This document shows positions 346 through 12,164 of a DNA stretch of 20,720 nt, one piece after another. Position 1 is the stretch's first letter. Every line of letters begins with the position of its first letter. Origin of the DNA: an uncultured virus (IMG/VR IMGVR_UViG_3300006358_000001) (lineage: Duplodnaviria; Heunggongvirae; Uroviricota; Caudoviricetes); the IMG/VR virus record IMGVR_UViG_3300006358_000001. The stretch is one strand, 5' to 3'. Under the pieces are notes generated by a model. The model did no database searches. It saw only the letters and a program-made list of their open reading frames with translations, and had not been told where the DNA came from. The translations under genes and the position numbers were made by a program.

Positions 346-557
346 CACTTGTTCTCCCACTTGCTTTCGACGGAGTCATAGACCCACTCACCCGTGCGAT
401 AGATGCCGTCCTTCTCATCCTGATACTTCTGGATGCGAAGCTGCATGTCCTTGTAGTCCTCGAACTCCCAGTAGCCGGGACCGAACTGGCTGTAGTCCGG
501 CGGATCAGGATCGTCGATCCACGGCGCGAAGTTCGGCTCGCTGCGAATGCGGCTCAT
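345..557 (-). CDS. Small acidic/aromatic hypothetical protein (70 aa)
   Basis: ORF track; start overlaps the portal stop (ATGA) and stop overlaps the next start (TGATG). Confidence 0.75.
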   Translation of the reverse strand: MSRIRSEPNFAPWIDDPDPPDYSQFGPGYWEFEDYKDMQLRIQKYQDEKDGIYRTGEWVYDSVESKWENK

Positions 558-3500
558 AGCTTGATGCCCTTCTTCTTCGCGAGATTGATCAGGCTCTTCT
601 CGTAATCGGAGTCACGCTCCTTCGGCATCACGCCCATTTGCTCCCACAAATCTTTCTCAGGCCACCACCATGTCGCCTGCGCACCTGCGGGTGTGAGCCG
701 ATAGCCGTCTTCCTTGTTCAGCTTGTCGATTGCGCCGTGCATGATCTCGGTGATCCACTTGCGCTGAGCACCCGATGCAGGTTGCTCGTTGAGCTTGCCC
801 TTGTCGTACAGCACGAGCCGCTCAGCAGCGCCGACCAGTTCGCTCTTCTTGTACTTCTCGCCGGGCTTCTTCGTCTCCTGCCACTTCTTGTACGCCTTCT
901 CGTGACGCGCCTCGACTTCGTATGCACGCGCGATCAATTCCTTCTTCGATAGTTCGCCATCACCACCGTGAGCGAGCACGCGCTGCATGCGCTCAAGCTG
1001 TCCGCTCATGTCATCGTTGACGCCTGTGCCAGTGAGACGTCCCCACGAGCGCATCAGCCACAAGTCCATCGTGATCGGATTAAAGTTGCCGTTGAGGTTC
1101 TGATAGAAGCCGTTGCCGATCTTCGGTCCGAGATACGCGGAGCCGAGCACCATGTCGTCCTTGTTGGTCGCGCCGGGCTCGACGCCCTTCTTCGTGCCAA
1201 GGATCACGCCAGTGCGCTTCTCCAGATCACGCGCCGTCATCTCCTCGTTGAAGAACTCGATGGTCTTATCGATCCCGATCTGATCGATCATCTTGTTGAC
1301 CTTGATCAGGTTGTTCGAGATGTTCGGATCAGCAGCGCTGATGTCGAGCGGGAAGCGACCGTTGCCCGGCGACTTCTCTTCCTGTTCGAGATAGCTGGTG
1401 TAAGCCTGATCGGCGAGATCGGCAGAACGGGAAACGATCTCACCCTGCGATGTGATCGCGAGCGCCACCGTGTACATGAACTTCTGACGCGGATCGTCGG
1501 CCATGCCGGGATATATCTTCTCGGCAACGCTCATCGCCCGCTTCATCGTGTCGTCGTACCAATACTCGCCACCCTTGCCGTTGATCAGCGCATCGCGCAT
1601 TTCAAGCGCAACGAGATCGGTCAGGAATTTGTCGCTCTCCGGCGTGCGGTTCTCGACGGTCAATTCCTTGACGCCGAACTTCTCTTCGATGATCCCCTGC
1701 GCACGCTTCATGATCATCTTCGCGGCGTCGCCGACGTTGACCTCGCCACGCTTGATGTTCGGATGCTCCGACGTCAGCGACATCGATGTCAGTCGGTATC
1801 CCGGCGTGTCGGTTCGCTGGCTCCAATGATCGCTGACACCCTTCCAGATGTCTTTTGCTCCCGGTACTTGGGATTCTGCAATGACGCTTTCGTATACTTC
1901 TCGGCTGCGGTCTCTTTGCTGTCGCTCCGTGCCGTCTTCTGGGAGTGTTTCTGGTGGGACGAATTCTCCGTGTCCCTTCTCGTAGTCGATGGGGTTGTCA
2001 TTGCCGTACCTCTCTGCAGCCTTGTTGATCGCATCGAAGCTCTCGCCGTCGAGATCAGCGACGTAGACTGTAGCGCCGCCACCTTCCTTCGGCACGATGG
2101 TATGGAATGCGAGTCCGTCCTTCAGCAGGTTGCGATGGATCGCAGCGAGTTCACCCTCCGCCTCGAAGTGTGCGAGCACCGACTTGCCGCCGTCCTCCTG
2201 CTTGAACACCAGCACCTGCTTCTGATCGAAGATGTGGCCCTTCATCACAGCAGCGAGCTTGATCTCTTCGTATGATCCCTGCGCCGTGGTCATCAGCGAA
2301 TTCTCTGCACCGTCTGCCCACGCGCCGAGAATGTTGACGTCCTTCGCGCTCTTCAGCCCGACCTTCTCGTTGATGTCGTCGGACACGACGCGCATCTTCT
2401 TCTGCTGTGCGGAGCCCAACTCGCGCACGGCTTCCTTGAAGTCGAGGTTGGTCTTCACGCTGGGCGATACGAACTCCGTGCTCCTGCCACCCTTGCTCGC
2501 GTTCTGCAGCTTGCTGTGGATGACGGTCTCGCCCTTCTCGTTCTTGCTGGTGAACGTCGCGCCTTCCTTCGTCGCGGTGTACTGCGCACGCGCGTGCTGC
2601 AGATATCCCTCACGCGCAGCCTTCTGCGCTTTCCTCACAGCGGGATGAACCTTCTCGCCCTTCTTGTGCGGCGCTGGCTTGCCTTGCTTGCCGCCGCTGT
2701 ATCCACCGGGACCGAACTGGCCAGCGTTCTCAGGTTGACCGCGCGGGTGATCCTCTTCACGCCAGATCGCATCGAAGATGCGCTTCACCAGCCAGCCCTT
2801 GAAGCCTGCGTCCTCGCTGTCCTCCGCGAATTCCTCTTCCTCGATGCGCTCGCCGTTCTCATCGAAGCCCGGTGCTGGCAGCAACTTCTGTTCGTGCTGA
2901 TGCAGCGCGTGTTCTGCGATCATGTCTTCATCGATAGCGGACTCTTCCAGCGCAGCTTCGAGACCGGGATACGTTCCGTCCTCGATCAACTGGTTCTGCC
3001 GACCCTTCGCCAATGCATCAGGCGGAATCAATCCGGCGTTGACGTCGATCATGTTCGCCTGCGCCTTCTGCAAAGCAATCGACGCTTTCTCTGCATCGCT
3101 CTGCTGCCAGAGCGAAGTCCATTCGTAATAGATGTTCTTGTCGGTCTTCCCCAGTGCCGATTGCTGGATCACCCTGTCGAGCTTCTCCAGCGCTGGCGTC
3201 AGCCGCAATATCTGATCGGAGTGAATGCGGTCGTAGTAATTCTGCAGATCACTATCGCCAGTCGCATTCAATCCTGCAGGCGACATGCCAAGGAAGCGCG
3301 TCACCGGAATATCGGCAGCACCTGCCGCGATCTGCAGATACATCTGCAGTATCTCCGGCATGCCACGGAATTGCACTTGGATGCGCTGCCAGTCCTCTTC
3401 AGCGTCGATCAGGATGGAATTGACAATCGACTTCGCGACGTTCGCTTCCGTCATGCGCTTGACCATGCGCTGCGTGCCGTCGGTGGTCGAGAAGATTTCA

Positions 3501-4198
3501 GTGAGACCGGGAATCTTGATGACGTCGATCTTCGCTTCAGCGATCAACGTGGCCAAGCTGCCCATCACCGATCCCGCCGACGACACCGCGTCGTGGATCA
3601 CTTGCAACATCGGATCGCCCCAACCGAAGTTCGCCATCGGGTCAGGCGGATCGAGACCGATCAGGCGCACCATGCGCGATGGATGGATCATCACATCGCC
3701 GAACGTGCCGTTGGTGTCGTTGATCTTGTAGTGCTCCGGCATGCCGTAGTACGGCGACGAGATGTCCTTGATGATTTCCTGCGGCGCGAGTTGATGCGGT
3801 GCGAACACGTGCACGAACTTCAGCCCGTCTTTCTTCACCGTCTTCGGATCAAGCTCGCTCGCCATGTCACCATCAACGCCGATCAGCATGCACGAGCCGC
3901 CATAGAGCCGCGACTTGACCAGCGCATCCTGCAGCTTCTGCTGTATCAGCAGCCGCTTCTCCGTCTCTTCGAGTAGCTCGATCTGATTCTGTTCGGCCTG
4001 CCACGCACGCCATTCGCGCACGCTGTCCATTGCAGGGATCGCGATTGCCTTGCGTGCGATCCAGTCGGATTGATACGACGCTTCGAGTTGCTCGCGCGTC
4101 CACAGTTGCTTGACGTACCTGAACCCAGTCGACTTATCCCGGCCAGCGATGCCGAGCCCGGACAGGAAGTTCGTGAACGTGTCGAACATGTAAGCCAT
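554..4198 (-). CDS. Phage portal protein (DUF1073/HI1409-like) with long C-terminal extension
   Basis: N-terminal ~420 aa carry DUF1073-type motifs (YQSDWIARKAIAIPA, SRLYGGS, IHPSRMVR, AGAADIPVTRFLGMSPAGLNATGDSDLQNYYD); downstream of TerL; then an acidic linker and ~750 extra aa. Confidence 0.88.
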   Translation of the reverse strand: MAYMFDTFTNFLSGLGIAGRDKSTGFRYVKQLWTREQLEASYQSDWIARKAIAIPAMDSVREWRAWQAEQNQIELLEETEKRLLIQQKLQDALVKSRLYGGSCMLIGVDGDMASELDPKTVKKDGLKFVHVFAPHQLAPQEIIKDISSPYYGMPEHYKINDTNGTFGDVMIHPSRMVRLIGLDPPDPMANFGWGDPMLQVIHDAVSSAGSVMGSLATLIAEAKIDVIKIPGLTEIFSTTDGTQRMVKRMTEANVAKSIVNSILIDAEEDWQRIQVQFRGMPEILQMYLQIAAGAADIPVTRFLGMSPAGLNATGDSDLQNYYDRIHSDQILRLTPALEKLDRVIQQSALGKTDKNIYYEWTSLWQQSDAEKASIALQKAQANMIDVNAGLIPPDALAKGRQNQLIEDGTYPGLEAALEESAIDEDMIAEHALHQHEQKLLPAPGFDENGERIEEEEFAEDSEDAGFKGWLVKRIFDAIWREEDHPRGQPENAGQFGPGGYSGGKQGKPAPHKKGEKVHPAVRKAQKAAREGYLQHARAQYTATKEGATFTSKNEKGETVIHSKLQNASKGGRSTEFVSPSVKTNLDFKEAVRELGSAQQKKMRVVSDDINEKVGLKSAKDVNILGAWADGAENSLMTTAQGSYEEIKLAAVMKGHIFDQKQVLVFKQEDGGKSVLAHFEAEGELAAIHRNLLKDGLAFHTIVPKEGGGATVYVADLDGESFDAINKAAERYGNDNPIDYEKGHGEFVPPETLPEDGTERQQRDRSREVYESVIAESQVPGAKDIWKGVSDHWSQRTDTPGYRLTSMSLTSEHPNIKRGEVNVGDAAKMIMKRAQGIIEEKFGVKELTVENRTPESDKFLTDLVALEMRDALINGKGGEYWYDDTMKRAMSVAEKIYPGMADDPRQKFMYTVALAITSQGEIVSRSADLADQAYTSYLEQEEKSPGNGRFPLDISAADPNISNNLIKVNKMIDQIGIDKTIEFFNEEMTARDLEKRTGVILGTKKGVEPGATNKDDMVLGSAYLGPKIGNGFYQNLNGNFNPITMDLWLMRSWGRLTGTGVNDDMSGQLERMQRVLAHGGDGELSKKELIARAYEVEARHEKAYKKWQETKKPGEKYKKSELVGAAERLVLYDKGKLNEQPASGAQRKWITEIMHGAIDKLNKEDGYRLTPAGAQATWWWPEKDLWEQMGVMPKERDSDYEKSLINLAKKKGIKL

Positions 4199-4201
4199 CG
4201 A

Positions 4202-4399
4202 TCAGACCTTCAACTCACGTTCGATTTCCGAAACGATCTCTTCCCGTGAGCGACCGTTCTTGTTGATCAAATACAATTCGATGTCGTACAGCAGCGAGTT
4301 CAGCAGCGCCTTGCGCTCTTCCGTCGCCCCCAGCATTCCCTTGCCCGTCGCACGCTGGCTGATGATCTTCGCAGCGTCGCGTATCTCATCATCGGTCAC
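4202..4399 (-). CDS. Hypothetical protein (65 aa)
   Basis: ORF track; GTGA overlap with the upstream ORF; ends 3 nt before the portal start. Confidence 0.65.
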   Translation of the reverse strand: MTDDEIRDAAKIISQRATGKGMLGATEERKALLNSLLYDIELYLINKNGRSREEIVSEIERELKV

Positions 4400-4695
4400 A
4401 TGTCACCGCCGTTGCCAGAGCGACCAGTGCCGCTCCAGTGCGATGGCTTAACAACGCGCGGCCCATCGTCATCGATGCCCTGCGCAACCTTCATCGCGTT
4501 GGACATGTCGCCCATCGTGCGTGCGCACAGTCCATGCGGATCGAGCGACTGCTCCAGCATGATCCACGGCACCAGTCCGGCGATGGTGTGCCTGCCTCTT
4601 GCCAGAGTGAACAGCAGACCTTCGATCTCCAGCGCCACCGTGATGTCCATTGCCCATCCGGTCTTCGCTATGCCTGCGAGCGTTTCAACTTTCAT
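4396..4695 (-). CDS. Hypothetical protein (99 aa)
   Basis: ORF track; 4-nt overlaps at both ends. Confidence 0.65.
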   Translation of the reverse strand: MKVETLAGIAKTGWAMDITVALEIEGLLFTLARGRHTIAGLVPWIMLEQSLDPHGLCARTMGDMSNAMKVAQGIDDDGPRVVKPSHWSGTGRSGNGGDM

Positions 4696-4880
4696 TTGTC
4701 ATCCCACCTCTTGATCGCATCCATCATCAGCAGCGCAGGCACTTCCTGATTGCTGTACTCGCCTTGCGTAGCATGCGCACCGACGCGGATCGCGCACCAG
4801 TAGACCAGACGACGCGGCAGCTTCCACGCGATAGCAGCCAGTATCTTGTCGCGGTCAAACCATTTGTCGGCGTGGTTCAT
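4692..4880 (-). CDS. Hypothetical Trp-rich phage protein (62 aa)
   Basis: ORF track; ATGA overlaps at both ends. Confidence 0.7.
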   Translation of the reverse strand: MNHADKWFDRDKILAAIAWKLPRRLVYWCAIRVGAHATQGEYSNQEVPALLMMDAIKRWDDK

Positions 4881-5104
4881 CCGCGAAACCTTATCTTCTC
4901 AACATCGACGACAACGCCCGGATTGGTGAGCACGAAGCTCTCCTTCATCCGCTCCCACTTCGTGTGCCGCACGTACATGCGCAGCGAGTCGTTGCTCATC
5001 AGGATGTTCTCTTGCGTGAGCATCGCGAGGATGCCCGGCGGAATCTCCACAGCGAGCGCGTCGTCGTCTGGCACGATGATCACGTGGGTGCCCTTCGGCA
5101 GCAT
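4877..5104 (-). CDS. Hypothetical protein (75 aa)
   Basis: ORF track; GAGGA RBS upstream; coupled to the next ORF. Confidence 0.7.
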   Translation of the reverse strand: MLPKGTHVIIVPDDDALAVEIPPGILAMLTQENILMSNDSLRMYVRHTKWERMKESFVLTNPGVVVDVEKIRFRG

Positions 5105-5114
5105 CAGTCGATCC

Positions 5115-5279
5115 TCATAGGCTAAGCCCTATCGCTGCAAGAACGCTCACGGTGAGCACGATGCTGATCACTGCCCAGTCAGCGCGACCGCTCCAGTCCT
5201 TGACGTCGTCGATCCAGTCGCGCCGTCGCCCACGCAGAGCGTCCTGCTTGTCGGTGATCAGCTTCTCCAGATCGCACAT
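5115..5279 (-). CDS. Small membrane protein with C-terminal TM helix (~54 aa)
   Basis: 3' part of ORF 5115..5387; GGAG 6 nt before ATG 5279; ends WAVISIVLTVSVLAAIGLSL. Confidence 0.6.
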   Translation of the reverse strand: MCDLEKLITDKQDALRGRRRDWIDDVKDWSGRADWAVISIVLTVSVLAAIGLSL

Positions 5280-5295
5280 CACCATCTCCGCTCGC

Positions 5296-5490
5296 TCAGT
5301 GCACGCTCTGCATCTCACGCTCAACAGCGGCCACAATTTCGTGGCGCTGCAGAATTGTCTCTCTGCCTTCAAGCATGGCTTCAGCATCGAAGATCAAATC
5401 CCACCATGCGTGCTGCGGTCCGACACGTGCAGCAATCCCTCGCATGATCTCCACCGCTCGAACGAATTGCCGATGATCCATCATGCTCAC
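5296..5490 (-). CDS. Hypothetical protein (~62-64 aa)
   Basis: ORF track 5296..5496; GTG at 5490 overlaps the TerL stop; alternative ATG at 5484. Confidence 0.6.
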   Translation of the reverse strand: MSMMDHRQFVRAVEIMRGIAARVGPQHAWWDLIFDAEAMLEGRETILQRHEIVAAVEREMQSVH

Positions 5491-6953
5491 ACCCACGACA
5501 GCGAGCGATCATATGTGCCGACGGATGCGGCGAGCTTGTTGAACGCGCCCGCTGTTGCATCGACCTGATCGTCGTTCCTGCCATTCGGGAATTCTTCGTG
5601 CTCCTGCAGGAATTCCCTATTCCATCCTGCGGCCTTGATCGAGACCTGTCCAGCCTGAACCTGCGCTGCATAGGGTTCGGCGCGAACTTCTTTCGACCCG
5701 GTCACCTTGTCGAGCTTCACCGTGAAGCCCTTGAACTTGCGTGCCGACGCTTCGGCTGACTCCTTGCCGCCCGATCCCGGCTCTTGCTCGAACCAGATTT
5801 CATATCGAGGGCACATCGCCTTGTCTGCGATGGCTGCTTGCATGATGCGGTCGTCGCGTTCGAGCGATCCCCACTGGCCACGGATCACATCCTCGACGAC
5901 GGTCGTGCCGTTCTTCATCTCGTGCACCAGCGATGCGCAAGTGTAGTCGCCGTCGCCTTGCGATGATGCCTTGTCCACGTAGCGCACGCTGCGCTTGATC
6001 TCTCGTCGATCCACGGAAGCGATGACGTTGAAGCGCTCCGTCGGAAACATGTCGCCGCCTGCAGCGATGGGCGACTGCTGATAGATCGATTGCCAGCCCG
6101 ACAGCGTGAGCACCTTCTTGCGCTCCATCAGGAATTCGACTGGCTTCAATCTGGGGAAGAGCGCCTGACCTTTCTTGCGATACTCCTCATCGACCTCAGC
6201 GATGGCGGGATAGCGCAGCACCTTCGTCTTCGGAAACATCTCGATCCATCTGCCGAGCGGATCGTCGAGGTGCCAGCGTGTCATGATCATCAGGATGCCA
6301 GCCTTGTCGCTGAACCTGCCGAAGAAGTCGTCGGTCATCCACGCCCATGTCTTATCGCGGATTGTCTTCGACATCGCTTCGGCGCGACCCTTCATCGGAT
6401 CGTCGATGATGCCGAGATCGAGACCGAGCCCGTTGATCTGGCCCATCACCGTGGTGTTTCGGAAGCTGCCGTTCTTGCCGACGTATTCAAGCAGCGAGCT
6501 ATTGCGTATCCATCGAGCGCTATCGGTCGAGGTGTTCGAGGTGTTCAGCCGCGTCTCAGGGAATGCGACCCGGTACGCGTAGCTGTCGAACAGGCGCTGC
6601 AGCGAGAGGTTCACGCGCACGCCGAGATCGTCAGAGTAGCTGCCGAAGATCGTCTTGAGATTTGGATTCTTGCCAGCGCACCACGCGGTGAAGTCGGTCA
6701 CGGTCTCTGTCTTGCCGTGCTGCGGCGGTGCCATCATCACGAGCGCAGGACGTTTGCCTGCGACCATGTCCTCGTAGAATTGCTGGAGATGTCGAGCGGC
6801 ATCGCGTTGCCACCAGCCCTTGATCATCGTCGGATGCATCAGCTTGCGGAATTCCCAGAAGTTATTCTGTGCACCGAGAGCCGCAGCACCCTCAAACACT
6901 TTCACATCTGGAGCAAAGAATTCCTCCGTCCTCTCCGGAGCGAATTGAACCAC
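5487..6953 (-). CDS. terL: Terminase large subunit
   Basis: Walker A MAPPQHGKT, Walker B LGIIDDP, motif III IMTRWH, YQQSP linker, nuclease motifs YVDKA, EQEPGSGG and DDQVDA. Confidence 0.95.
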   Translation of the reverse strand: MVQFAPERTEEFFAPDVKVFEGAAALGAQNNFWEFRKLMHPTMIKGWWQRDAARHLQQFYEDMVAGKRPALVMMAPPQHGKTETVTDFTAWCAGKNPNLKTIFGSYSDDLGVRVNLSLQRLFDSYAYRVAFPETRLNTSNTSTDSARWIRNSSLLEYVGKNGSFRNTTVMGQINGLGLDLGIIDDPMKGRAEAMSKTIRDKTWAWMTDDFFGRFSDKAGILMIMTRWHLDDPLGRWIEMFPKTKVLRYPAIAEVDEEYRKKGQALFPRLKPVEFLMERKKVLTLSGWQSIYQQSPIAAGGDMFPTERFNVIASVDRREIKRSVRYVDKASSQGDGDYTCASLVHEMKNGTTVVEDVIRGQWGSLERDDRIMQAAIADKAMCPRYEIWFEQEPGSGGKESAEASARKFKGFTVKLDKVTGSKEVRAEPYAAQVQAGQVSIKAAGWNREFLQEHEEFPNGRNDDQVDATAGAFNKLAASVGTYDRSLSWV

Positions 6954-6954
6954 G

Positions 6955-7296
6955 TCACTTTCCCTTCAGCTTCTGCCTTGCCAGTTGCGCTTCGAGTATA
7001 GCGACGTCGCGAGTGTACGCGTTCATCAGCTTCTGCACTCGCTTGTATTCCGACTTGGTCGGACCGTGCTTCGCTGCGCTGTCGATCAGGCCCTCGAACT
7101 TCGGCGCACGTGCAACGGCACCAGCGAGATCGAACTTGCCCGGACCGCCATGCGTCGCGCTGATCTCATCCTTCAGCGTGCGCTCGTTGTCCCACACCGG
7201 CTCAAGGCCTGTCTTCAATCGAGCGAACAGCTTGTTCAGTTCAAGCAGTTGCTCTTGCAGCGCAGCAATGGCTTCGGGCGATGCTTCGTCACTCAT
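6955..7296 (-). CDS. Hypothetical helical protein (113 aa) between TerS and TerL
   Basis: ORF track; overlaps the TerS end and stops 1 nt before the TerL start. Confidence 0.7.
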   Translation of the reverse strand: MSDEASPEAIAALQEQLLELNKLFARLKTGLEPVWDNERTLKDEISATHGGPGKFDLAGAVARAPKFEGLIDSAAKHGPTKSEYKRVQKLMNAYTRDVAILEAQLARQKLKGK

Positions 7297-7693
7297 CGGG
7301 ATCGAGATCGTCCTCGACCAGATCGGGACGCATCACCCTCAGTGCGATCTCCATCGAGATGCCACGGCTGGCCAACTCGCGGCGCACGTCATCGACCGAA
7401 TGGTAGGTGACCTCCTCCTTCTGATCCAGACCGCCACGGGTCTCGATCTGGAGCGGGATCACCTTGCCCAGCATCGAACAGAACGCCTTCATGTCGTCAC
7501 GTGCGACGCGGCGCATGTAGCCGACCAGCTTGCCCTTGCCCTTGCCGTCTTCGCCTTCGAGTTCAGCGGCGAGGAGGAGGGCGTCGCGCAGGATGCGTGT
7601 CGTCTTCGTGCTGGTGCCCGGCCTGCGACCGGGATTGCCCGGCTTGAACCGTTGCGGAAACCGTTCTGGTTCTGGTGTGGGTTGCTGATCCAT
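7289..7693 (-). CDS. terS: Probable terminase small subunit
   Basis: ATG 7693 with GAGG RBS; FKPGNPGRRPG N-terminal motif typical of small-terminase-like (DUF5681-like) proteins; upstream of TerL. Confidence 0.7.
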   Translation of the reverse strand: MDQQPTPEPERFPQRFKPGNPGRRPGTSTKTTRILRDALLLAAELEGEDGKGKGKLVGYMRRVARDDMKAFCSMLGKVIPLQIETRGGLDQKEEVTYHSVDDVRRELASRGISMEIALRVMRPDLVEDDLDPDE

Positions 7694-7797: not shown

Positions 7798-8274
7798 CTA
7801 TGCGGTTTGCAGGAGACCCGGTGCCAGTTCGACGCGTCCCAACGCATCTAGCAGAACAATCTCACGCTGGCGAGATGTCTGCCCTTGGTAGATGCCGCGC
7901 TGTCCGTCGAGTAGTCCGCCGACGACCTGCACACCCTGTCCCTGTTTGAAGCGTGACTTCTTCAGGTGGATGAGCCCGTCGGAATGTTCTTGTTGTTTCA
8001 TTCGATCAACCCAGCCCTTCGGAAGATAGGCCGGGCGTTCTCCGTTCATGATCAGGTTCGAGACGCCGAACGTCGAGAGGATGGCGTGCCACTGGTGCTC
8101 GATCCAGACGAACACGTAGCGAGGAAACAGCCAGCGTGCTTCGTGGACTTTGCGACCGCGCACGACGCGCACGATCTTCTCTCGCGGCGCGTAGCAGGAG
8201 AAGCCTTGTCGCTCAAGGTGCCGGATCGCGCGGTGTTCGCTGGATGGCTGAGCTTGCACGACGGACCAGAACAA
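7798..8274 (-). CDS. NusG/RfaH-family transcription antitermination factor
   Basis: NGN domain (WSVVQAQPSSE, LFPRYVFV, STFGVSNLI) plus KOW motif (FKQGQGVQVVGGLLDG); likely TTG start at 8274 with GGAGG 6 nt upstream (ORF track extends to 8307). Confidence 0.9.
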   Translation of the reverse strand: MFWSVVQAQPSSEHRAIRHLERQGFSCYAPREKIVRVVRGRKVHEARWLFPRYVFVWIEHQWHAILSTFGVSNLIMNGERPAYLPKGWVDRMKQQEHSDGLIHLKKSRFKQGQGVQVVGGLLDGQRGIYQGQTSRQREIVLLDALGRVELAPGLLQTA

Positions 8275-8305
8275 CGGCGACCTCCCTGATTCGCAGTTGC
8301 CGCGC

Positions 8306-8336
8306 ATTCTGCGGAGCGCTCTGCCGCAGCGTCAAG
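8306..8336 (-). promoter_or_regulatory. Candidate leftward promoter cTTGACG-N18-CAGAAT for the NusG-like gene
   Basis: -35 at 8335-8330, -10 at 8311-8306; same -35 hexamer and spacing as the candidate at 7764. Confidence 0.45.
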
Positions 8337-8524: not shown

Positions 8525-8912
8525 CTCGGCCCGGTCATCTACCGGGTCGGTGGCGGCAGGCCTCGCACCCTGATCGCCCGCACGGGACCCGGATCAATCC
8601 CGACAGGCAACGTCCTGCAAGAAAGTCCGGTCGCTCTTGAGAGGGCGTGGGCACGGAATGAGCAGGACATCTTCCTCCCCCCACGCTGGCTTGAGACGGT
8701 GATTTCGCGGGACGCCTCATTGGCCAGCCACGCGGCGGAAACGGTCCAGACTGCGGGCCATCGTGACCTGAATAGACAGGCAGCAAACACAACAAAGACC
8801 ACTCGCTTACGAGCGAGTGCATCTGAGCACGGCGAAGACGTAACCGGGACAACGCAGTTTGCAATGTCAGCCCGCATCGTTCGCGCCGTGTCGAGATGCA
8901 CTTCCGCATCGC
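8525..8912 (+). ncRNA. Candidate ~390-nt structured leader RNA or ncRNA
   Basis: No credible CDS between the promoter and the first RBS; successive stems 8526-8550, 8612-8668, 8685-8728, 8767-8780, 8800-8819 (UACG loop) and 8817-8901. Confidence 0.5.
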
Positions 8913-8933
8913 GCCATCAACGGAGCAACCTAC

Positions 8934-9158
8934 ATGGCACGCAAATATTTCACCCTCATCGAACGCGACCCGATCTCGAAGACATGGTCGCCGCAGTTCG
9001 GCGACTACGACCGCAACGTCGTCGTCGAGGAAGGCCAGAGCATGCACGACCAGATCGGCTTCACGATCTCGAAGGGCACCAAGTTCAAGATCATCTCCAC
9101 CACCGGCAAGCAGGCGGACATCAATGCCGCCGTCGCTGCCATCAACTCCCGCATCTGA
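8934..9158 (+). CDS. Hypothetical early protein (74 aa, MARKYFTLIE...)
   Basis: 3' part of ORF 8859..9158; GGAGCAACC before ATG 8934. Confidence 0.8.
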   Translation: MARKYFTLIERDPISKTWSPQFGDYDRNVVVEEGQSMHDQIGFTISKGTKFKIISTTGKQADINAAVAAINSRI

Positions 9159-9169
9159 AAGGAAACCCC

Positions 9170-9937
9170 ATGCGTACCATCTCGAACCTCATCAACAGCA
9201 AAGCGCTCTTCGTCATCAACCACTCTGGCGGCAAGGACAGCCAAGCCATGATGATCAAGATGCTTGAGATCATCCCGGCCAGCCAGATGCTGGTCGTCCA
9301 CGCCTCACTCGGCGACGTCGAGTGGAAGGGCGCACTTGAGCTTGCTGAGAAGCAGGCTCGCGACGCTGGCGTCGAGTTCATCGTCGCTCGCGCAGAGAAG
9401 AGCTTCCTCGACATGGTCGAGAAGCGCTTCGCGGATCGGCCCGGCGTGCCCTCGTGGCCGTCGGCGAAGTATCGTCAGTGCACCAGCGACCTGAAGCGCA
9501 ACCCGATTGAGCGCGACATCCGCCGCTACATGAAAGCACGCGGCCTCACGCTGGTCGTGTCGTGCACCGGCATCCGCGCAGCGGAGAGCAACAGCCGCTC
9601 GAAGCTGAACCCGTTCAAGCTCAGCGAGAAGAACTCGAAGGCCGGTCGCGAATGGTACGAGTGGTGCCCGATCTTCAACCTCTCCACCGCTGAAGTGTTC
9701 GCGACCATCAAGGCTGCGGGTCAGCAGCCCCACGAGGCATACGCTCTGGGTAACGAGCGCCTGTCTTGCGTGTTCTGCATCATGGGCAGCAAGGGCGACC
9801 TTGCTCTCGGTGCGAAGCACAACCCTGAACTCTTCGCTCGCTACGTCGAACTCGAAGAGCGCACTGGCTACACGATGCACATGAGCCAGCGCAGCCTGAC
9901 CGATCTGGTCAATGACGCGCAGCAGTTCGCTGCTTAA
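9170..9937 (+). CDS. Phosphoadenosine phosphosulfate (PAPS) reductase family protein
   Basis: PP-loop SGGKDS, RQCTSDLKRNPI, GIRAAESxxR, PIFNLSTAEVF, RLSCVFC; ATG 9170 after AAGGAAACCCC. Confidence 0.88.
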   Translation: MRTISNLINSKALFVINHSGGKDSQAMMIKMLEIIPASQMLVVHASLGDVEWKGALELAEKQARDAGVEFIVARAEKSFLDMVEKRFADRPGVPSWPSAKYRQCTSDLKRNPIERDIRRYMKARGLTLVVSCTGIRAAESNSRSKLNPFKLSEKNSKAGREWYEWCPIFNLSTAEVFATIKAAGQQPHEAYALGNERLSCVFCIMGSKGDLALGAKHNPELFARYVELEERTGYTMHMSQRSLTDLVNDAQQFAA

Positions 9938-10499: not shown

Positions 10500-10565
10500 G
10501 CGACTTCTTCGACACTGCGCATCTCGGTGCGCAGCACGAAGCATTCCGCTTCAGGAGCAACCACC

Positions 10566-12164
10566 ATGACTGAACTTCCCATCTCTGAACTGAAGACGCG
10601 TGGCCAGATCGTTGCCGACGATGTGTCGGCTCTTCTCCGCGCTCGAAACCCGCTGATCTGGATCGTCTCTCGCGAAGAAGCTCGCGTCGAGGCGCTCTTG
10701 ATCGAAGCCGCTGCCGCCGCTGCCTACGTGCCTCGCATGTGGGACGCTGCGCAGGGCATCACCGACATCTCCGGCAAGCAGATCGCGGAGATGCGCGACC
10801 AAGTGGACGTCGCTGCAGCGCTCACCATGATCGGTGCTCGTGCGCAGGGTCGCGAACGCGGCGCGTGGATCATGCGCGATCTGCCGGTGTGGCTCGATGG
10901 TGCCATCGGCATCGTCACGCTGCGCCAACTGCGCAACCTCGCTCGCTCGCTTCCGGGCGCTCCACGTGAGAGTGCGCAGGCGATCATCGTGATCTCTCCG
11001 AAGGCTGAGGTGCCGCCGGAGCTTGCCGGTCATGCCACGGTCATCGATTGGCCGATGCCTGATCGTGCGGAGATCGCGGCGATCCTCGACGCTGCCATCG
11101 AAGGCCTGCCCGACGACCTGCGCGACAGCGCAGCGCCGAACGGCCAGCGAGAGGCGGCGATTGATGCCGCTGTCGGTCTCTCCGGTGAAGAGGCGCAGGC
11201 TTGCTACGCTCGCTCGCTGGTGCAGCTTCGCAAGATCGACCCGGTGCTGGTCGCATCGGAGAAGAAGCGCGTCGTGTCTCGCGAGCGCGTCGTCGAATGG
11301 ATCGAGCCGATGAAAGGCGGACTCGATGCGGTCGGCGGTCTTGAGAACCTGAAGGGCTGGCTGCAGGTGCGCAAGTCGGCCTACAGCCCGGCGGCGCGTG
11401 CATACGGTCTGCCCGCACCGAAGGGCATCTTGCTGGTCGGCATTCCCGGCACCGGCAAGTCGCTCACCGCGAAGGCGGTCTCCACGGCGTGGCAGTGCCC
11501 GCTGCTGAAGGTCGATCTCGGTGCACTGAAGTCGAAGTTCGTCGGCGACAGTGAAGCGAACCTGCGGCGGCTCTTCAAATTGATCGAGGCGATTGGACGA
11601 TGCGTCGTCTGGTTCGACGAGATCGAGAAGGCGCTGCAGGGCGCGACGTCAGGCTCTGCTGACGGCGGCGTCTCCAGCGATGCGCTGGGTGCGGTGCTGA
11701 ACTGGATGCAGGAGCGGCAGGGTGAAGCGTTCGTCATCGCGACGGCGAACGATGCATCTGCGCTGCCGCCTGAGTTGCTGCGCAAGGGCCGGTTCGACGA
11801 ACTGTGGTTCGTTGATCTGCCGACCAAGGCGGAGCGTGAGGCGGTGCTGTCCGCAGCGCTGCGCCAGTACAATCGCGGCGACGTTGCCGTGAACGCTGCC
11901 AAGGTGGCGAAGGCCACTGAAGGCTTCACTGGCTCCGAGATCGCGGCCCTCGTCCCTGATGCGCTGTTCACGGCGTTCAATGACGGTGCTCGCGAGATCG
12001 TCACCGAAGACCTCTGCGCTGCTGCCGGATCGGTGGTGCCGCTGAGCGTGACAGCGCCTGAGAAGATCAAGGCGCTGCGTGAATGGGGCGCTGGCCGGGC
12101 ACGTCCCGCGTCTGCACCCGAAGTCGCTGCGAAGGCTGGCAAGGTGCGAGCCCTCGATCTCTAA
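10566..12164 (+). CDS. AAA+ ATPase, Ycf46-like (degenerate N-terminal domain plus one intact AAA domain)
   Basis: Walker A GIPGTGKS, Walker B VVWFDEIEK, sensor ATAN, SRH LPPELLRKGRFDE; GGAGCAACC before ATG 10566. Confidence 0.9.
   Translation: MTELPISELKTRGQIVADDVSALLRARNPLIWIVSREEARVEALLIEAAAAAAYVPRMWDAAQGITDISGKQIAEMRDQVDVAAALTMIGARAQGRERGAWIMRDLPVWLDGAIGIVTLRQLRNLARSLPGAPRESAQAIIVISPKAEVPPELAGHATVIDWPMPDRAEIAAILDAAIEGLPDDLRDSAAPNGQREAAIDAAVGLSGEEAQACYARSLVQLRKIDPVLVASEKKRVVSRERVVEWIEPMKGGLDAVGGLENLKGWLQVRKSAYSPAARAYGLPAPKGILLVGIPGTGKSLTAKAVSTAWQCPLLKVDLGALKSKFVGDSEANLRRLFKLIEAIGRCVVWFDEIEKALQGATSGSADGGVSSDALGAVLNWMQERQGEAFVIATANDASALPPELLRKGRFDELWFVDLPTKAEREAVLSAALRQYNRGDVAVNAAKVAKATEGFTGSEIAALVPDALFTAFNDGAREIVTEDLCAAAGSVVPLSVTAPEKIKALREWGAGRARPASAPEVAAKAGKVRALDL

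Follow-up and report, generated by a model that had tools for sequence, protein, structure and literature searches.

We analysed a 20,720-nucleotide stretch from an uncultured tailed-phage genome of the Caudoviricetes (IMG/VR record IMGVR_UViG_3300006358_000001), which at its full length is called the window here. One minus-strand gene, at 554-4198, encodes a portal protein with a long C-terminal extension. With moderate confidence we read the last ~360-425 residues of this protein as a highly divergent member of the helix-hairpin-helix (HhH) HhH-GPD DNA-glycosylase superfamily that would act as an N-glycosidase and travel as capsid cargo. In the predicted structure, the domain is closest in shape to Ogg2 and EndoIII. 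A glycosylase-like fold and retention of the key Lys and Asp residues together make it probable that the phage carries a DNA-base-cutting enzyme inside its capsid, probably a glycosylase/lyase. The parts of the gene on which this reading depends are as follows.

554-4198, minus strand: single open reading frame (ORF) of 1214 amino acids (aa), made up of portal, linker, middle module and glycosylase-fold domain, from the ORF list and its translation; stop codon at 554-556
557-1831, minus strand: C-terminal domain as searched and modelled, aa 790-1214, from homologues and an AlphaFold2 model
620-1663, minus strand: core aligning with HhH-type glycosylase structures, aa 846-1193 (model residues 57-404)
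1031-1144, minus strand: predicted HhH, Gly/Asn/Pro loop and Asp-capped helix, aa 1019-1056, GSAYLGPKIGNGFYQNLNGNFNPITMDLWLMRSWGRLT, from the model, conservation and profile placement
1121-1123, minus strand: codon of K1026, candidate Schiff-base or substrate-positioning lysine, opposite Nth K120 and the Ogg2 HhH Lys, kept in 201 of 201 family members
1064-1066, minus strand: codon of D1045, candidate catalytic aspartate, opposite Nth D138 and the Ogg2 Asp, kept in 201 of 201 family members
788-1021, minus strand: predicted antiparallel coiled-coil insertion, aa 1060-1137 (model helices 276-288, 296-320 and 331-343)
620-781, minus strand: C-terminal helices with P1140, R1146 and QAxxWxPE, aa 1140-1193, from hhalign against Ogg2

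Predicted fold of the C-terminal domain

The AlphaFold2 model of aa 790-1214, built from a 34-sequence alignment, was all-alpha and had high confidence values (predicted local distance difference test, pLDDT, 94.0; predicted template modelling score, pTM, 0.90). It has the two lobes and the inter-lobe active-site cleft of the HhH-GPD superfamily. Along the chain, a helix (model residues 230-234) leads through a G-P-K hairpin into a second helix (238-246), which is followed by the loop N-G-N-F-N-P-I-T-M, by D256 (D1045 of the protein) and by a helix at 257-267. This succession in the model, from HhH to Gly/Pro loop to an Asp that opens the following helix, is the order seen in the superfamily.

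The model was compared with 48,161 PDB representatives by VIA-align, which is independent of Foldseek. NTHL1 ranked first (8.7), followed by Qng1/DUF2419 (8.1 and 7.9). The first 23 ranks also held MutYX, EndoIII (three times), ROS1, OGG1, MIG, AGOG (twice), Mag1, MUTYH, CacOgg, AlkA (three times), MagIII, MutY (twice) and the phage enzyme PUGT (6.2). Sequence identity to these structural matches was 7-13%, and from rank 24 the list consisted mostly of unrelated coiled coils matching model residues 271-348. By this comparison of the model, the HhH-type glycosylase fold is the sole class heading the list. An initial annotation of the window had placed an HhH-glycosylase-like domain at 600-1600, a span that covers about aa 867-1200 of the portal fusion protein, and the predicted structure agrees with it, matching HhH-type DNA glycosylases first and not an unrelated fold. 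Foldseek returned nothing from the PDB at E<=0.001 (best row, E 0.23), and its top target-normalised template modelling score, 0.42, belonged to an archaeal 8-oxoguanine glycosylase at rank 23. Against BFVD, it matched only unannotated polyvalent phage proteins. A lytic transglycosylase or lysozyme was considered and rejected, no such fold appearing in the structure lists, and an InPase was rejected because that enzyme has an OB fold and the domain is all-alpha.

The resemblance to Ogg2 (Thermotoga maritima Tm1821, PDB 3n0u; PF22175) is one of shape, with 8% sequence identity. The phage domain is ~150 residues larger: it has additional helices at its N-terminus, a beta-hairpin, and a coiled-coil insertion of 78 residues after the Asp helix that is absent from classical glycosylases. 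Ogg2 is encoded by a cellular repair gene, whereas the domain described here is encoded within a portal or polyvalent protein of a phage. EndoIII, NTHL1 and MutY (PF00730) carry a four-Cys loop that holds a [4Fe-4S] cluster; no such cluster is possible in the phage domain, because it contains no Cys. The only Cys in the entire protein, C103, lies in the portal.

The presence of PUGT among the structural matches raises an alternative function. PaMx11 gp46 PUGT (PDB 8z2m) belongs to the aGPT-Pplase type of thymidine hypermodification enzymes, and a transferase of this kind would decorate 5-hydroxymethyl-pyrimidines in phage DNA after replication. We regard this as highly improbable for the domain. 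PUGT depends on a Cys247 nucleophile and a metal ion, which a Cys-free domain cannot match in the first respect, and it was placed below 20 true glycosylase or Qng1 chains in the structure list. Neither a catalytic Cys nor a supply pathway for 5-hydroxymethyl-deoxyuridine was found; a thymidylate-synthase-like hydroxymethylase and TGT/DpdA were both missing from five related viral records, two of which are 100% complete.

Conservation of the candidate active site

An exhaustive HMMER search with aa 790-1214 as the query, run against cluster representatives at 50% identity, matched 1628 representatives at E<=1e-3, 1222 at 1e-10 and 315 at 1e-30. The minus-strand frame is taken as real because of these 1628 homologues and a fold predicted at pLDDT 94; the long plus-strand ORFs at 638-952 and 968-2275 are antisense frames of a gene with 58% G+C. 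The domain family was found on at least 537 viral contigs and on 25 contigs of genome collections, mostly metagenome-assembled genomes (MAGs). The collection of cultured phages yielded only three records, at 29-35% identity. Limnohabitans phage DC33 is an example of a cultivable carrier.

Conservation was measured over 201 aligned copies of the domain, taken from 221 stored proteins with the query excluded. G1024, K1026, G1028, F1031, N1034, L1035, T1043, D1045, W1047 and R1054 were kept in every copy, as was S917; W880, Y881 and R1050 were kept in 99%, and Q1174, A1175 and W1178 in 97%. The Gly and Pro residues around the hairpin and loop (G1024, P1025, G1028, G1030, G1037 and P1041), with D1045, ranged from 90 to 100%, and no Cys occurs among the conserved positions. 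The isoelectric point (pI) is above 8 in 97 of the 201 members; as a test of DNA binding it was uninformative.

The initial annotation had singled out five peptide strings, all of which occur in the translation of 554-4198 (minus strand) under the numbers it gave (W880, G1024, K1026, D1045 and QATWW at 1174-1178). These motifs reflect more than chance because they are near-invariant across the 201 members. Its suggestion of a catalytic Lys and Asp is strengthened by the invariance of K1026 and D1045, each found in 201 of 201.

The spacing from K1026 to D1045 bears on the kind of substrate. As stated in PMC9881137, HhH glycosylases and Qng1 share no invariant residues other than an Asp and a Lys in the HhH motif. 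The domain might then be a nucleotide N-glycosidase resembling Qng1/DUF2419 (PDB 7u07, 7ugk), its Asp and Lys serving, early in infection, to hydrolyse a free nucleotide, for instance one that the host uses in signalling or defence, or a metabolite. We judge this unlikely. Lys and Asp lie 19 residues apart in 198 of the 201 members and 18 apart in three, a spacing that fits DNA glycosylases (18 in Nth, 18 in Ogg2) and not the 32 of Qng1 (K199, D231). The best single structure match and the profile placements given below are to DNA enzymes, and roughly half of the family members are basic (97 of 201, pI above 8). Qng1 also has no counterpart of the coiled-coil insertion, and it is not a virion protein but a salvage enzyme of eukaryotes and bacteria.

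Sequence-profile comparisons with known glycosylases

Several comparisons at the level of whole profiles weigh against membership in the HhH-GPD superfamily. In hhalign, the 201-sequence family alignment scored a probability of 0.2% against an Nth/MutY reference of nine genes (Escherichia coli nth and eight further loci), and the whole domain scored 5.4% against an Ogg2 reference of 19 sequences, which a motif filter had kept from 30 loci; neither value is significant. The HhH-GPD model PF00730 matched none of 34 members at E<=0.01 and none of 35 at E<=0.05, and the Ogg-HhH model PF22175 matched none of five records of relatives. Glycosylase-family Pfam models as a group gave nothing against this domain at E<=10. 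Two of the alignments were set aside on inspection: the whole-domain alignment to Ogg2 is incorrect at the coiled-coil insertion, across which it runs the Ogg2 HhH, and an alignment of the HhH piece alone laid TMDLW on the Ogg2 LDLyLW, which was taken as spurious. The Ogg-HhH model also had no match in 151 genomes of the phylum of G002 or in two archaeal MAGs.

The likeness might then be no more than a common helical arrangement, with an unrelated all-alpha enzyme or scaffold and a coincidental pairing of Lys and Asp; we consider this very unlikely. A sliding test bears on the pairing. A 36-column profile (aa 1019-1054) was scored at all placements along each reference alignment, with one single-residue indel permitted. 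On Ogg2, the top of 197-198 placements paired K1026 with the HhH Lys and D1045 with the Asp, with a score of 15.1 versus 0.5 for the second placement (z 4.6), a score reached by one of 300 column shuffles. On Nth/MutY, the top of 175 placements set K1026 on K120 and D1045 on D138 (z 3.8); 20 of 300 shuffles reached this score, so that it does not stand out beyond shuffles. By these placements, Lys and Asp are at superfamily-equivalent positions, and the parallel drawn in the initial annotation holds for both residues. The last motif of that parallel, Q-A-x-x-W, fared less well. Model residues 345-425 align with Ogg2 over 46 columns as far as its C-terminal LDLyLW (hhalign probability 27.5%, P 6.5e-4), so that Q-A-x-x-W does have a counterpart there, in L-D-L-x-L-W, but the alignment is weak.

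No named sequence family claims the domain. Searches with aa 471-1214 found no match in Pfam (E<=10), NCBIfam, PHROGs or, by phmmer, the PDB, and a family-profile search of the PDB gave a single match, 2d1l at E 0.01, which is a coiled-coil artefact. The nearest family by language-model features (scores 0.95-0.97) is DUF7178 (PF23802), an uncharacterised viral family. Its hidden Markov model (HMM) gave sub-threshold matches from the N-lobe through the HhH in three of 33 members (22-25 bits versus a cut-off of 27) and a match of 12.8 bits in one of five records of relatives. The DUF7178 model had no match to the window protein itself at E<=10, falling below its curated cut-off of 27 bits, and it spans 193 positions versus ~350 in the domain.

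Genomic contexts of the domain

Three recurrent settings were seen for the domain: fusion to a portal, a position just downstream of portal genes, and inclusion in giant polyvalent phage proteins. The architecture seen in the window is kept on other contigs, several of them 80-88 kb, at 88% and ~50% identity, and the portal domain PF06381 is present in 23 of 88 near-length homologues. Among the best 80 viral loci, the ORF carrying the domain was identified in 79; 10 of these carriers are fused to this portal family, 19 have the middle module and 37 are at least 1500 aa long. A scan of flanking genes covered 115 ORFs from 71 loci, leaving out five ORFs of at least 1000 aa and five duplicate loci. 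A head/packaging, tail or DNA-ejection gene is adjacent in 29 of the 71, and a separate portal gene lies directly upstream in nine.

In the relatives L038, L039 and L065, the portal (491 aa) and a protein made of the middle module and the glycosylase-fold domain (717 aa) are encoded by two adjacent genes, at 3614-5086 (portal) and 5095-7245 (cargo) in L038. The window gene is therefore the fused form of a portal and downstream-cargo pair.

Some carriers reach 2000-4400 aa and hold LPD22, LPD38 and ART-PolyVal domains. A scan of 14 large carriers found LPD38 in three, LPD22 in three, ART-PolyVal in four (one of them weak), a portal in one, Pyr_redox in one and nothing in four. This makeup is the polyvalent-protein pattern described by Iyer et al. 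2017 (PMC5512222), so far as the parts of that paper used here set it out. Fusions of portal domains with PBECR, 2H and InPase domains are also reported there, with injection predicted (PMC5512222), and the window protein shares with those polyvalent proteins the stringing of disparate modules on a head protein encoded in the head module (PMC5512222). Several unrelated modules are indeed joined in one ORF that is encoded with portal and terminase genes. None of the Pfam LPD models matches the domain.

These settings bear on a further alternative, that the domain is a noncatalytic DNA-handling module whose HhH fold grips DNA and holds the genome end or pilots ejection. The portal fusion would place it beside the DNA channel, the neighbours in related loci include several with annotations as DNA ejection or pilot proteins, and HhH motifs are sequence-independent DNA-binding elements, as stated in the part of PMC9881137 used here. 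Yet giant multi-enzyme proteins carry the domain as well, at a distance from any portal, and an Asp kept in 201 of 201 members in the catalytic placement, with invariant W, R, N, T and F residues nearby, is the pattern of an active site and not of a phosphate-binding surface. A noncatalytic role is improbable in our view.

Solo copies were found on nonmobilizable alphaproteobacterial megaplasmids of Methylorubrum extorquens AM1, Bosea and Rhizobium leguminosarum, with coordinates NC_012811.1 926682-927779 and NZ_AP022849.1 510436-511992 (L116 8797-10353). The Bosea copy, a 518-aa hypothetical protein, adjoins a transposase and lies near an LPD1-domain protein. Two of the 25 genome-collection matches, L007 and L017, are contigs binned into archaeal MAGs (Methanobacteriota and Bathyarchaeia).

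Proposed mechanism

As a glycosylase, the domain would break an N-glycosidic bond, with DNA as its most likely substrate. The role of D1045 would be to stabilise or attack C1', and that of K1026 to serve as a Schiff-base nucleophile for apurinic/apyrimidinic (AP) lyase activity or as a substrate-positioning lysine, as in bifunctional glycosylases. In solved portal structures the C-termini face the capsid interior, and twelve copies of the middle module and the domain would therefore be built into the head. We infer packaging in the virion from the fusion to the portal C-terminus, by which the 12 copies would be carried inside the capsid. Action on DNA would come at genome entry, with the domain either released into the cell or still tethered. 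The initial annotation had proposed an injected enzyme that acts on host DNA or protects incoming phage DNA, and this functional part of its proposal stands as an inference, in contrast to the structural part.

A stricter version of tethering, which we rate as a slim prospect, is a ring of twelve Lys/Asp glycosylase-lyase domains on the inner portal face that inspects or edits the genome during packaging or ejection. Such a ring would be a translocation-coupled base-excision device as opposed to a freely diffusing injected effector, and we hold that description to be just as doubtful.

Other parts of the gene and its neighbourhood

The remaining parts of the fusion protein are the following.

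2909-4198, minus strand: portal domain, aa 1 to ~430, from Pfam, PHROG, PDB and TIGR01555 matches
2489-2908, minus strand: variable linker, aa 431-570, poorly conserved and gappy in portal fusions
2714-2758, minus strand: junction peptide EEDHPRGQPENAGQF, aa 481-495, within the linker, matching the pattern [DE]..HPR..G.F
1832-2488, minus strand: conserved middle module, aa 571-789, predicted tandem ferredoxin-like alpha/beta fold

The portal assignment is supported by Pfam Phage_portal_3 over aa 37-381 (E 2.3e-96), PHROG 146 portal (E 1.8e-120), the Pam3 portal 8hds (E 2.3e-94) and TIGR01555 of NCBIfam. Over 21 portal-fusion homologues, identity in the linker per 30 residues was 0.06-0.37, with a gap fraction of up to 0.83. 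The junction peptide, which lies in the linker after the portal, has the form D/E-x-x-H-P-R-x(3-9)-G-x-F/W. Its core pattern, [DE]..HPR..G.F, had 47 matches in 36 of 222 family proteins versus one in shuffled copies, mainly at the starts of modules (in P0006, for example, at positions 21, 300, 569 and 1019), and the peptide may be a cutting or docking signal. An S-adenosylmethionine (SAM) lyase was considered for the middle module and kept as a lead only, the matches being heterogeneous and the Atlas scores 0.79.

The large terminase (TerL) is encoded at 5487-6953, upstream of the portal gene, with five small unassigned ORFs between the two. Adjoining the packaging genes in the window are a NusG-like protein (7798-8307, minus strand), a PAPS-reductase-domain protein of 412 aa (8699-9937, plus strand; PF01507) and an AAA ATPase (10527-12164, plus strand; PHROG 8638, E 1.7e-173). 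In L028, a relative at 94% identity, the head module downstream of the portal gene includes, at 4328-7297, a gene for a protein of at least 990 aa with collagen-like repeats, through which it matches many tail-fibre PHROGs.

Significance

We regard the domain as a new branch of a known superfamily, one that HMMs miss and that occurs here in a new setting. Literature searches returned no paper on DUF7178, none linking glycosylases with phage polyvalent proteins and none on an HhH-GPD glycosylase as injected bacteriophage capsid cargo; a broader search gave nothing relevant among the matches listed. The word "glycosylase" is absent from the text of Iyer et al. 2017 that was checked (PMC5512222), its supplementary domain tables lying outside that check.

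If the domain is active, phages would carry in the capsid a DNA base-excision enzyme of the HhH type, for which these literature searches gave no example. The family is large and has neither a name, a Pfam model that recognises it nor a publication, and the solo megaplasmid copies in cultured bacteria are possible laboratory handles on it. It would offer testable entry points to what head-fused and polyvalent phage proteins do upon arrival in the cell, to whether phages attack or repair bases as DNA enters, and to whether the family holds new glycosylase specificities that could be of use as reagents. On this reading, the HhH-GPD superfamily would reach well past what its sequence models detect.
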